DNA of 64,000 nucleotides from an uncultured Fibrobacterota bacterium (GTDB taxonomy: Bacteria; Fibrobacterota; Chitinivibrionia; Chitinivibrionales; FEN-1185). Below the pieces are notes generated by a model, which was given only the letters and a program-made list of their open reading frames with translations, made no database searches and was not told where the DNA came from. Numbering within the stretch: position 1 is the first letter of the stretch; every line of letters begins with the position of its first letter. The stretch is taken from NCBI GenBank assembly GCA_963753345.1, contig CAVWBU010000024.1:128001-192000 (forward strand). Reading direction: 5' to 3'. Of this stretch, positions 11,166 through 16,653 are shown piece by piece. The position numbers and the translations under genes are program-made.

Positions 11166-11933
11166 TCAAATAAATTTTTCGCGCCGCTGCAAGTTTCTTA
11201 TGCCCCACAAAATCGCCAGCACGCCTGCCGCTGCAAGCACGACGCGGTTGGCCCGAACAATTGAATCCCACACCAGTTCCCTGGAACCCTGAGGAACCGC
11301 ATACGGGTTCAAAAAAATATTCCATTGACTTCCGGCCAGAGATCCGCTCAGCAGCCAGGAGCCAAGTCCCGCAAGCACAAGCAGGATTGCCGCGCCGTAG
11401 CCGTTCCGCATGAGCGTGGAAAACAGGAACGCGAGCGAACCCCAGAAGAACACCGGAAAGCACAGATGGAAAGCCATGCCAAGAACCGGCAGGTGCACAT
11501 GCAACACAACGCATGCCCCGCACAGGCACAGAAGCACCGCGGCCGTCACAGCGAAACAGAGCAGCAACCGGAAGAGCCAGACCTTGTAGCGGTAGTCGGG
11601 AATCCCGAAAATCAATTCGAGCATCTGCGCGTCCGCATCATTCTGAACGCCGAACACGGCCGGATAGAATACCAGCAGCAATCCCGGCACCAGCAGCAGA
11701 TTGTACAACATCTCGGGATTGAGCTCCCTTCCCGCCGACAGATTGATCCCGACGACAACAACAAAGAAACCGATTGCGGCAAGCAGAAAATAGAAGAACC
11801 GTTGCACAAAAATGATTTTGAGGTTGTAGCCGGCAAGCCTGCACATGAGCACCGCTCCGGGAAGCAGTCCCCTGCACAGGCGCAGGAACGACTCGGGCAG
11901 TCTAGCCATCGTCGCGACCTCTTTCATCTGCAT
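11166..11933 (-). CDS. ABC-2-type permease-like membrane protein
   Basis: About 6 hydrophobic segments; last gene of the transporter operon, overlapping the upstream stop. Alternative start at 11909. Confidence 0.65.
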   Translation of the reverse strand: MQMKEVATMARLPESFLRLCRGLLPGAVLMCRLAGYNLKIIFVQRFFYFLLAAIGFFVVVVGINLSAGRELNPEMLYNLLLVPGLLLVFYPAVFGVQNDADAQMLELIFGIPDYRYKVWLFRLLLCFAVTAAVLLCLCGACVVLHVHLPVLGMAFHLCFPVFFWGSLAFLFSTLMRNGYGAAILLVLAGLGSWLLSGSLAGSQWNIFLNPYAVPQGSRELVWDSIVRANRVVLAAAGVLAILWGIRNLQRREKFI

Positions 11934-14900: not shown

Positions 14901-16653
14901 CCTGCAGGCGTTTCTCAAGTTCGCGCACGGCAAAATCAGTTTTGTCAAGTGTTGCGCCGGTGGGCATGGTGAGGTAGACGCTGAATTGTTCCGTTGCCGC
15001 CTGCTCGACCGAGGCGCTGCCCTGCGAAAGGCAGACGCCGAGAGAGATGAGAAAAACCGCAAGCGCCCCGCAGATCGTGATTCCGGGATGGCGCAAGGCT
15101 GTTTTGAGCAGCACGCGGTAGATGCGGATTGCGGGCGTGCGCGAATCGACCCTCCGGAACGAAAAGGTGCTTTGCGGGGCCTTGCGCAAACGAAGAAGTA
15201 TTGCCATGGGGACCAGGAGAAACGCCGTAATCAACGAAATGACAAGCGTCGCGATCACCGAAATGCCCATATGTTTTCCGATCAGCCTGATCGTAAAATC
15301 GGACGCGAACAGGAATGGAATAAAAATCACAACGGTAGTGAGGGTCGAGGCGAACACCGAGCGCCATACCTCGGTAGTTCCCCGGGTCACCGCCCGTTCG
15401 GGATCGTTTTTGCGCGAGGCCAGCCGATAAATGTTCTCCATCACCACGACGCTGTTATCAACGAGCATGCCCACGGCGAGAGCCATGCCGACCAGGGTGA
15501 GGCTGTTGAGCGTAATGCCGAACACGTAGAAAAGGTTGAAGGCGCCCAGCACCGAGATCGGGATCGCCGCAGCAACAATCAATACCAGCCGGAGATTGCG
15601 CAAAAAGATCCACAGCACACCGACCGCCAGAAGACCGCCGACCAGGACCAGCAATGCAATCTGACGAAGGCTTTCTTCTATGGAATCGGCGGCATTGGAT
15701 TGGATCACGATCTGCACATTCTGCGGCGCCAGAGTTTTGTTCAGTTTCTTGATGACGGCCTGCGTCTGGTGCGAAAGATCGATCTGGTTTACCTGCGCAT
15801 CGCGCACAAGCTGCACGCTCACCGCCTCCTTGCCGTTGACGCGGCTCAGACTCGTGGGCTCCTTGAAACCGTAGAAGACATCGGCGATGTCCTTAAGAAG
15901 AACCTTGCCGTTCTTGTTGCTTACGCTGATGTTCTTCAAATCGTCGATGGTCCGGAATTCGGCATCAACGTCCACAAAGAAACGCTTGCCGCCGTCGTGC
16001 AGCGCACCCACGTATTGACGGGCATTGTTGTTCTGCTTGAGCAGGTTCTGAACGCGGGTCGGCGTTATGTTGTAGGCGCGGCAGATGTCATCGTTCATGA
16101 CTATCTCGACGCTTTTCGAACGCCCGCCGAAAACCTGCGCGCTCGCGACGCCGTCTATGTCCTGGAGCGCGGGCGCTATCTTCTGATCCACGATGTTGCG
16201 AATGCGGTCGGCCCCGCCCTCGCCGAGCACCTGCAAGGTCATGAACTGGTTGGCGGCCTGTTCGGTGTTTACTTTGTCCACTTCCACCGTGAACTGGGTG
16301 GGAAGCTGGCTTACCAGCGCGGTGACCCGCTGCTGCAGTTTGAGAAATTCATACTTGACGTTCACGTCCTTGTCGAAATACACGTAAATGGTGCCCCTGC
16401 GGGGTTCCGAATAAGAAAGCAGATTATCCACGCCTTCCAGCATTGCGGCCGCGCCCTCGAGCGGCATCACGCCGTTGCTTTCCATATACGACGGGTCCAC
16501 ATCGATGCGGCTCGTGATACGGATCAGCAGCATGGGCAGTTCGGTGTTGGGATACAGTTCCAGCGGCAGGTAACGAAACGATACTACTCCAAGCAGGCAG
16601 ATGCCGACAAAAAGCACGCTGATGAGGATTTTACGATTGAGAAGTTGTAGCAT
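11902..16653 (-). CDS. AcrB/RND permease fused to extra TM helices and a C-terminal ABC ATPase (1583 aa)
   Basis: RND motifs (LP.ELYP, GMLVDNSVVVMENI, RMRPIFIT) followed by Walker A GPNGAGKST, LPQE, FSGGMKQR, VVDEP, STH. Confidence 0.92.
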   Translation of the reverse strand: MLQLLNRKILISVLFVGICLLGVVSFRYLPLELYPNTELPMLLIRITSRIDVDPSYMESNGVMPLEGAAAMLEGVDNLLSYSEPRRGTIYVYFDKDVNVKYEFLKLQQRVTALVSQLPTQFTVEVDKVNTEQAANQFMTLQVLGEGGADRIRNIVDQKIAPALQDIDGVASAQVFGGRSKSVEIVMNDDICRAYNITPTRVQNLLKQNNNARQYVGALHDGGKRFFVDVDAEFRTIDDLKNISVSNKNGKVLLKDIADVFYGFKEPTSLSRVNGKEAVSVQLVRDAQVNQIDLSHQTQAVIKKLNKTLAPQNVQIVIQSNAADSIEESLRQIALLVLVGGLLAVGVLWIFLRNLRLVLIVAAAIPISVLGAFNLFYVFGITLNSLTLVGMALAVGMLVDNSVVVMENIYRLASRKNDPERAVTRGTTEVWRSVFASTLTTVVIFIPFLFASDFTIRLIGKHMGISVIATLVISLITAFLLVPMAILLRLRKAPQSTFSFRRVDSRTPAIRIYRVLLKTALRHPGITICGALAVFLISLGVCLSQGSASVEQAATEQFSVYLTMPTGATLDKTDFAVRELEKRLQGLDETDNLLSMVYEDEAVLTVKLKKNYSDIGHRTLSQIKADIQKRLDNFPLGSVGFTQPTSSSRYRGNNGVNANARLQQVLGVGSQDETVVVRGDDFDRMEAVADEIRFELNNVSTVQSVQLDIPGRQGEVHLFFDTQLMRQYGIGLQSVASELSGFTQELTSGLQFKQGADQYDIMVTSKGASVQNRNASGRGATANNAKTFDELNNVPVSASNGTDYPLQEISKIIRANGPASINRANQEHRIVITYHFADEITSSQSLLKAAREEVDNTIDAMTFPAGIAVEPVHGQSGINDFYYLIAAAFLLIYMILASVFESFTAPLVMMFSIPLAAIGAFWLQILTGHSLLNANSLMGFLILFGVVVGNGIILIDFTRVLRRRGFSTARALMTAGQDRMRPIFITAITTAVGMLPLALGKGGEIGAIGAPFALTVIGGIISASLLTLVFIPTCYSGLESALGYLRSLSWTIRIVQLGALAMCVWLVFVYVDDPLWRLADVIIFTVAVPAATWFLLSSLRRARMSGQEQRPATIQIRNVQKIYNMPGRFAREWGAAVQGIAHGAAKGDWGALFWQIPLMGFLLYFVYWYADNGFWQCAFALVTYCYALFLFKRHGLFVNIARPGNKAVFGLHDKVYEALFWGAPLANLVFFQYAWKRVSVVLLTGIVWYLGLAVFRTSRWLESNPGADPRTWKTPWAKPAAVFIALVKLVPVLGARRSTFHALKGVSLQIEHGMFGLLGPNGAGKSTLMRIVAGIYEQTYGKVYINGLDTALHREELQGLIGYLPQEFGTYPNLTAREFMDYQAIIKGLRDPAARRERILSVLTAVHMEDHADEKIGSFSGGMKQRIGIAQIMLHLPRILVVDEPTAGLDPSERIRFRNLLVELSRQRVVIFSTHIIEDISSSCNRMAVLIAGELRYAGEPAGMLRHAAGRVWQATIDNKEYDALARRTSVVRHISDGDRIHVRCIASEKPHPEAQPAQPTLEDSYLCLTRDLKNADERGRDDG

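Follow-up and report, generated by a model that had tools for sequence, protein, structure and literature searches.

A conserved seven-gene cluster with an RND permease fused to an ABC ATPase domain in an uncultured Fibrobacterota bacterium

Efflux pumps of the resistance-nodulation-division (RND) type, which are driven by protons, and ATP-binding cassette (ABC) transporters, which are driven by ATP, are treated as separate energy classes. In a 64,000-nucleotide (nt) stretch of DNA from an uncultured Fibrobacterota bacterium (GenBank assembly GCA_963753345.1, contig CAVWBU010000024.1, positions 128,001 to 192,000; the whole stretch is referred to as the window), the two classes are welded into one polypeptide. 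A single open frame, 11902..16653 on the minus strand, encodes 1583 amino acids (aa) and carries an RND permease and an ABC ATPase domain in one gene. This joined gene is genuine and conserved, and its design as well as its partner genes are kept in many lineages. On balance, the cluster in which it lies is probably a two-stage exporter, in which an exporter of the ABC-2 type is tethered to a tripartite RND pump.

The RND part of the fusion is a full-length domain, as the Pfam family ACR_tran (PF00873), which in HAE-1-like permeases has 12 helices and two large periplasmic loops, is matched by residues 5-1035 over positions 6-1018 of the 1021 positions of its model (E-value 6.9e-167). ABC_tran (PF00005) is matched by residues 1302-1446 with an E-value of 1.9e-28 and 100.2 bits (cut-off: 25). 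The Walker A (GPNGAGKST, 1318-1326), the Q-loop (LPQEF, 1363-1367), the signature (FSGGMKQR, 1418-1425), the Walker B including the catalytic glutamate (ILVVDEP, 1438-1444) and the H-loop (FSTH, 1471-1474) were all located, and they are invariant in a homologue alignment of 26 sequences (the window copy and 25 relatives). A first-pass annotation of the window, made from the DNA letters, had described a 1583-aa frame with a full RND body and an ABC ATPase with all motifs intact, and both statements are borne out. Judged by these residues, the fused ATPase domain looks catalytically competent. The fused RND body reaches only 470 bits for the NCBIfam family RND_permease_2 (cut-off: 1250) and is a distant subfamily with no named equivalog. 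For the fused ATPase, GldA (158.3 vs. a cut-off of 402.6) and drrA (154 vs. 312.45) are the top NCBIfam matches, both below their cut-offs; by sequence, it resembles the GldA/DrrA group without being a member of either equivalog. The parts of the fusion, all on the minus strand, are as follows:

13537..16653 (-): RND permease body, residues 1-1039 (Pfam ACR_tran; alignment to the solved MdtB and CmeB)
13360..13509 (-): two extra predicted transmembrane (TM) helices, residues 1049-1069 and 1073-1098 (AlphaFold2; hydropathy windows 1053-1071 and 1080-1098)
13288..13317 (-): predicted first beta strand (IQIRNVQKIY, residues 1113-1122) of the ATPase domain, including the A-loop tyrosine (AlphaFold2; superposition of solved ATPase domains)
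12790..13275 (-): predicted insertion within the ATPase domain, residues 1127-1288 (AlphaFold2; conserved columns)
11905..12759 (-): rest of the ATPase domain and C-terminal domain, residues 1299-1583 (Pfam ABC_tran; K1324, Q1365, D1442-E1443, H1474)

The junction between the RND body and the linker that follows it (13300-13600) is bridged by contigs of three runs from two studies:

Run X1: contig of 13,820 nt, 12679-26502, crosses the junction
Run X2: contig of 1,966 nt, 12681-14646, crosses the junction
Run X4: contig of 704 nt, 13245-13948, crosses the junction

The table of insertions and deletions (indels) comprises 12 rows, none of which falls within 11902-16653. Thus, a stop or indel between the two parts, for which the first-pass annotation had proposed to look by mapping reads, did not appear as an indel anywhere in the gene. 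This control was made on assembled contigs instead of raw reads, and as the best-matching run may be the window's own sample, its independence is partial.

Homologues of the C-terminal 544 aa are fused as well. All 120 matches listed contain both PF00873 and PF00005 (46-86% identity, most of them 1538-1640 aa long), with the closest named homologue among these matches (82% identity) originating from a Chitinivibrionales bacterium; an always split state of the homologues, as the first-pass annotation had considered, was hence not seen. When the linker was compared with shorter proteins only, two of 3294 candidates matched. As both of them contain PF00873 and sit on tiny contigs (3662 and 2517 nt), they were taken as cut-off fusions. 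An exhaustive search with the 271-residue linker against 1.84 billion representatives matched 60 proteins, 15 of which are 1550-1585 aa long and have the linker at about 1028-1309. Nine of the eleven shorter matches that were inspected begin within RND sequence; the short match P0144 looks chimeric, and P0175 begins within the insertion. Neither the search against shorter proteins nor the one against representatives gave a convincing case of a free-standing form. The fusion frame is also free of stops in four other genomes of the window's genus. Three of these copies are 1586-1626 aa long, and the fourth (genome G004, locus L089, ~8810-10450, 1233 aa) is broken where the sequence reads N. Four Bacteroidota genomes have an open fusion frame of 1572-1577 aa.

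The region behind the RND body was modelled with AlphaFold2 (residues 1040-1583, built with the 25 homologues; mean predicted local distance difference test score, pLDDT, of 81). The model starts with helices at 1049-1069 and 1073-1098, followed by the strand 1113-1122, a helix at 1127-1141, four long helices (1148-1168, 1172-1200, 1205-1234 and 1237-1262), a helix at 1276-1288 and, from about 1299 on, the remainder of the ATPase domain. The two further TM helices which the first-pass annotation had noted after the RND body are thus there, but the linker has six predicted helices; similarly, the ATPase domain is present as claimed, but its split by a four-helix insertion had been missed. The superposition of solved ATPase domains starts at their residue 1-2, which falls on residue 70-73 of the model (1109-1112 of the protein), and skips the insertion; because of this the strand 1113-1122 is assigned as the first strand of the ATPase domain. 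The best structural match of the ATPase part is 4yer_A (Z 30.1, 274 of 285 residues), and 1vpl matches the C-terminal model with a Z of 28.5 and a root-mean-square deviation (rmsd) of 1.6 over 235 of 238 residues. According to these models, the strand in front of the insertion would complete the ATPase fold. Family models are matched by the fused domain only from model position 15, and by the free ATPase of the same cluster from position 1-2. The isoleucine, lysine and tyrosine of the strand are conserved among the 25 homologues. A comparison of the first strand of the free ATPase with the linker picks 1113-1122 as well, with a score that is non-significant on its own (reached by 113 of 2000 shuffles). 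About 175 residues lie between 1113-1122 and the continuation at ~1299; the ATPase domain is thus non-contiguous.

Within the insertion, columns of tryptophan, proline and phenylalanine are conserved across the 25 homologues. Hydropathy clearly flags only 1172-1190, 1236-1254 and 1276-1294 in this region, and the count of four predicted membrane helices comes from the model together with topology. On the best explanation, the gene encodes a polypeptide with 18 predicted membrane helices, which runs from the RND body via two extra helices and the first ATPase strand into a four-helix membrane insertion and then into the remainder of the ATPase domain. Foldseek, queried with the C-terminal model, returned ATPase-domain matches only, none of which classified the fold of the six extra helices.

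The fusion is the sixth of seven genes which lie on one strand in the order free ATPase, large permease, outer-membrane factor, adaptor, plain RND permease, RND::ATPase fusion and small permease:

25714..26604 (-): free ABC ATPase, 296 aa (MHISIE...), closest paralogue of the fused domain
22288..25711 (-): large permease whose N-terminal membrane part has multiple helices, followed by a big extracytoplasmic part and by Golvesin_C at the C-terminus (Pfam Golvesin_C; weak ABC2_membrane_2)
20822..22303 (-): outer-membrane factor, 493 aa (Pfam OEP, E 3.9e-39)
19756..20817 (-): periplasmic adaptor (membrane fusion protein), 353 aa (Pfam HlyD_D23 and HlyD_3; NCBIfam RND_mfp, 182 bits vs. a cut-off of 94.9)
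16631..19741 (-): plain RND permease, 1036 aa (Pfam ACR_tran, E 1.1e-202; 28% identical to the fused RND body)
11166..11933 (-): small membrane protein (small permease), 255 aa, with a predicted ABC-2 (type V) fold (fold search; complex model; conserved 3' of the fusion)

This order is kept in all eight loci with enough flanking sequence, which belong to two phyla (four Bacteroidota genomes on the one hand, the window and three further genomes from the same genus on the other), and the partial loci L088, L004 and L005 agree with it as far as their sequence extends. The distribution of linker and fusion across lineages is patchy. Within the window's phylum (296 genomes searched) the linker was detected in one genus only, where it is present in the window and in four of five other genomes, and it was not detected in the remaining genomes; one further match, in genome G175 (E 4.7e-4), corresponds to a 44-aa frame with two stops and was treated as chance. 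Among 401 sampled Bacteroidota genomes, four contain the fusion, and the large permease was found in exactly the same four. Two other matches in this sample (G424 and G631; E about 1e-3 and 4e-4) were likewise treated as chance. Among the matches listed, named sources of fusions comprise Chitinivibrionales, Bacteroidota, KSB1, Zixiibacteriota, Calditrichaeota, Latescibacteria, Krumholzibacteria and Chlorobi, among others. Scanning genome contigs by generic ATPase patterns gave mostly ordinary ABC ATPases, with only the loci L001, L003, L004 and L005 being informative.

The last gene of the cluster encodes the protein which is predicted to be the most direct partner of the fused ATPase. The start of the small permease overlaps the stop of the fusion by 32 nt, and it directly follows the fusion in every locus examined (40-93% identity). 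Its model (pLDDT 73.6) was used for a wide fold search without pre-filter against 48,161 solved chains, in which ranks 1-21 were all ABC membrane domains and the next unrelated row had a Z of 7.9. The top match was NosY (Z 14.5, rmsd 4.0, 215 aligned residues), and further matches were a mycobacterial pump (Z 13.9), ABCG1 (13.7), ABCA3 (13.6), Wzm (11.3), KpsM (10.4), TarG (8.6) and LptF/G, although helical bundles with a Z below about 13 may share a mere common arrangement and only the top eight rows have a Z of at least 13.3. The top families of a Foldseek search agree with ABC membrane domains, at E-values of 0.03-0.8 only. The nearest Protein Atlas clusters carry the automatic name 'putative ABC-2 permease', with PF12679 on 12% of one of them, and are leads only. 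By these models, the small permease is predicted to have the membrane-domain fold of ABC-2 (type V) transporters.

A complex model of the C-terminal module of the fusion with the small permease reached an interface score (ipSAE) of 0.67 (0.71, 0.67 and 0.67 in the individual runs), compared to 0.00 for the best of three controls. The mark applied is reached by 58 of 80 solved complexes and by 2 of 110 mismatched pairs, a calibration which is only rough here as own alignments were fed to the complex model. The runs share at least 68% of their contacts, and the pLDDT of the partner is at least 75. On the side of the ATPase, the modelled interface comprises the Q-loop and the groove of the helical subdomain (module residues 290-352), and on the side of the small permease it comprises the N-terminal helix 25-43, the conserved MLELIFGIPDYRYKVW motif (102-118) and the C-terminus. 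This predicted geometry is that of a permease coupling helix. The first-pass annotation, which had pictured a duplicated ATPase with the free copy as partner, overlooked this 255-aa protein.

Cooperation of inner-membrane pumps with tripartite RND pumps is a known concept. In the two-stage exporter proposed here, the fused ATPase domain would dock onto cytoplasmic coupling elements of the small permease downstream, and an ABC-2 (type V) module would thereby be physically tethered to a pump consisting of the plain RND permease, the fused RND permease, the adaptor and the outer-membrane factor. In a first stage, the ATP-driven ABC-2 module or modules would extract from the cytoplasm or the inner leaflet a substrate of amphiphilic or lipid-like nature, which in a second stage would be passed on by the RND part through the adaptor and the outer-membrane channel. 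The hand-over from the ABC to the RND part, a mixed RND trimer and the class of substrate are what we infer beyond the gene order and the models. The co-occurrence of all seven genes favours one integrated machine.

Besides the two cautions on the fold search and on the calibration of the complex model, several points weigh against this reading. The small permease matches no Pfam family at an E-value of 0.01 or below and no NCBIfam family; its best Pfam match, ABC2_membrane_4, has an E-value of 0.45 and occurs in two of six members. Profile comparisons of the small-permease family with the large permease and with a canonical ABC-2 permease gave no similarity, and Foldseek with the model of the small permease gave no match at an E-value of 0.001 or below, the best being CcmB with 3.2e-2. 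The result of the complex model may echo the model's memory of solved complexes of ABC permeases and ATPases. Moreover, no confident contact between the small permease and the six extra helices was reported in the complex model, which covers the C-terminal module and the small permease, so that any physical link of the ABC and RND membrane parts beyond the covalent tether is putative. The trimer of an RND pump and the dimer of an ABC transporter have mismatched symmetry. Finally, the cluster is not flanked by biosynthetic genes, and for this reason its substrate is a guess, with family resemblance pointing to an amphiphilic or lipid-like molecule.

Like MdtBC-type heterotrimeric RND pumps (HAE-1), the cluster contains tandem RND paralogues beside an adaptor and an outer-membrane factor. 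Among solved structures, MdtB matches each of the two RND bodies best (E 2e-70 and 6.3e-84). In contrast to MdtBC, one of the paralogues carries six extra helices and an ABC ATPase domain; both lack the lysine in TM10, and the fused one also lacks the second aspartate in TM4. A putative RND heterotrimer as in MdtBC would be built from the products of the tandem paralogous genes, which are 28% identical. With ABC-2/type V exporters (DrrAB, NosFY, Wzm-Wzt, GldAF, ABCA, ABCG) the cluster shares the structure of its ATPase, which matches TM_1403 (4yer), NosF and ABCA/ABCG, as well as a small permease with a predicted NosY/ABCG/Wzm-like fold. In the complex model, this permease docks in the coupling groove. 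Unlike in these exporters, the ATPase is fused to an RND permease and has a four-helix insertion between its first two strands, and the small permease matches no Pfam ABC-2 family. MacAB-TolC couples ATP hydrolysis to export via an adaptor and an outer-membrane channel and has an ATPase domain fused to its permease, according to the review PMC8277102. The cluster shares this combination of features, but MacB is a four-helix type VII permease dimer without an RND domain, whereas the periplasmic conduit of the cluster is an RND body and its ABC part appears to be of the ABC-2 type.

An unfused counterpart is present in the same genome (G000, contig C27, ~69375-77679, locus L105). There, genes for a TetR regulator, an outer-membrane factor, an adaptor, an RND permease, a DrrA-like ATPase and an ABC-2 permease lie in one orientation; the association of RND pump and ABC-2 exporter thus exists without a fusion as well, within a single operon. 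Its RND permease is of the R-L-V-D-D / Ser type like the plain RND partner of the fusion. In contrast to the cluster, RND permease and ATPase are encoded by separate genes, the ABC-2 permease belongs canonically to PF01061 without detectable similarity to the small-permease family, and both a second RND and a large permease are missing.

Locus L003 (6518-10831) represents a second class of fusion. It encodes an RND::ATPase protein of 1437 aa with a short linker of ~115 aa that contains one hydrophobic stretch, and its first ATPase strand is parted from the second by a soluble insertion of ~55 aa without the four helices. The ATPase subfamily (44% identity) and the C-terminal tail are the same as in the window fusion. 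The gene neighbourhood (406-12920) differs from that of the window fusion, its order being an RND permease, a 922-aa membrane protein, the fusion itself and then an outer-membrane factor. The 922-aa protein matches no Pfam family and has about six hydrophobic stretches in its N-terminal part. When this short-linker class was used as query, 118 of the 120 matches listed were RND::ATPase fusions, 38 of the 120 being 1408-1466 aa long, and the source names include Omnitrophota and Hinthialibacter.

Nested within the two-stage exporter is a variant that is plausible, though less likely than not. Here, the fused domain would heterodimerise with the free ATPase, and the two permeases, small and large, would form the matching asymmetric membrane pair. 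Each RND trimer, assembled from a single fusion and two plain RND subunits, would thereby have one ABC-2 transporter. The MdtB2C stoichiometry offers a model for such a trimer, and one fused subunit per trimer would solve the mismatch between trimer and dimer. The variant draws on the tandem RND paralogues with their 28% identity, on the presence of all seven genes in the eight complete loci, which keeps the idea alive, on the large permease being found only where the fusion is (the four Bacteroidota genomes out of 401) and on the close relationship of the two ATPases. The free ATPase is 46% identical to the fused domain over 276 residues (E 2e-78), including the tail (QPTLEDSY / QPDLEHAY), and shares the C-terminal domain with it. 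Within the genome, it is the closest paralogue of the fused domain (262 bits, residues 12-282 of 294), with the next match (34% identity, 144 bits) covering the core only. The likeness of both ATPases, tail included, had been recognised in the first-pass annotation, together with the proposal that a duplicated ATPase was recruited onto the RND subunit. A common origin by duplication is indeed reasonable on these sequence comparisons, but a recent recruitment is not. Across the window and the four Bacteroidota genomes, identity amounts to 59-63% among fused domains and to 58-62% among free ATPases, compared to 39-46% between fused and free; as the identity between the types is below that within each type across phyla, the duplication predates the spread of the cluster. 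Against a heterodimer speaks that both ATPases keep every consensus catalytic motif, and that each of them adjoins its own permease, an arrangement that is usual where two homodimeric transporters work independently.

It is unlikely, by contrast, that the RND body itself is energised or gated by ATP. According to this explanation, the RND body gave up canonical proton coupling, and the fused ATPase would act on it via the six extra helices and the small permease, replacing or gating the coupling to protons and thereby driving or gating its cycle. The proton relay, which in AcrB consists of D407 and D408 in TM4 and K940 in TM10, is altered in the fusion. Where the solved MdtB and CmeB have two aspartates and a lysine, the fused RND body has D399-N400 in TM4 and G948 in TM10. 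Two of the three charged relay residues are missing in all 25 homologues as well: the second TM4 position is asparagine in 23 and serine in two of them, so that the pair is never D-D, and the TM10 position is asparagine in 21 and glycine in four, but never lysine. Among the nine RND genes of the genome (three canonical with D-D / Lys, three of metal-pump type, two with R..D-D / Ser and the fusion, which is unique), the fusion alone has neither a second acid nor a Lys/Glu at the relay sites. In addition, the short-linker fusions would place the ATPase directly beneath the RND membrane domain. However, the altered relay is not confined to the fused copy. The plain RND permease of the Bacteroidota clusters has D-N with asparagine in TM10 in four of four cases, and because of this the change marks the clade and not merely the fused copy. 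Furthermore, R978 and T985 in TM11 are kept in the fused RND, the small permease would, by the complex model, sit in the coupling groove of the ATPase, and no known mechanism ties a dimer of ATPase domains to the rotating cycle of an RND trimer. If it were true, the fusion would be the first primary-active RND pump, with the short-linker class as its simplest form. The plain RND permease of the window's genus keeps D-D (R-L-V-D-D), with an arginine three residues before it and a serine in TM10 (four of four). This R..D-D / Ser type occurs in the genome at 16631-19741 of the window and at 72684-75785 of G000 contig C27; in both paralogues, the arginine before the TM4 aspartates may be a relocated positive charge of the proton relay.

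It is extremely improbable that the fusion is an artefact, that is, an assembly chimera or an overlooked frameshift or stop between two genes, since contigs bridge the RND-linker junction, the frame is open in relatives within the genus as well as in four Bacteroidota genomes, and all 120 homologues listed are fused, even though public assemblies break in the Walker A region at 12676-12714 and the cluster probably contains a single-base error elsewhere, near 23811. The breaks, with many loose ends, occur at 12676-12714 and 26476-26514, which are the two Walker A regions, and the sides of the joints are 21-29 letters long. A rearrangement between the two sites was considered, and the breaks were taken instead as breaks of the assembly graph caused by the repeated conserved motif. 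One extra base near 23811 splits the large permease of the window into two frames of 703 and 507 aa, which overlap. At 23811, one base is missing from the contigs of three runs, its omission yields a single frame of 1140 aa, and relatives encode the large permease in one frame of 1095-1163 aa. The split hence probably reflects either an error of one base in the assembly or a frameshift particular to the strain.

Full-text literature searches, which covered the titles and abstract openings of the papers listed, and passages of PMC8277102 and PMC11237479 gave no account of an RND-ABC fusion; subscription journals and supplements lie outside of this scope. The parts of the system are of known kinds; new are the covalent coupling, the predicted membrane insertion inside the ATPase domain and the fixed set of seven genes. 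Automatic annotation does see both domains. Databases label the fusions only as 'efflux RND transporter permease subunit' or give a double label, and because of such names the architecture escapes surveys that rely on annotation. As a two-stage exporter, the cluster would be a natural, stoichiometrically fixed system for coupling transport from the cytoplasm to the periplasm with transport from the periplasm to the outside. The fusion also offers a candidate example of a membrane insertion within an ABC ATPase domain, and a testable candidate for ATP control over the RND cycle.

Some neighbouring genes were noted in addition. A LacI-family regulator (27735-28724), encoded like the cluster on the minus strand and shortly before the free ATPase, might control the cluster. 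Downstream of the small permease, a membrane-anchored protein with an HD domain (HD_5) is encoded both in the window (10065-10988, minus strand) and in genome G001 (locus L088, 1-810). It is followed in the window by a protein with a prepilin-type N-terminal methylation motif (9327-9854, minus strand) and by a 570-aa DUF6600 protein with a long Gln/Ala-rich tail (7271-8983, minus strand).

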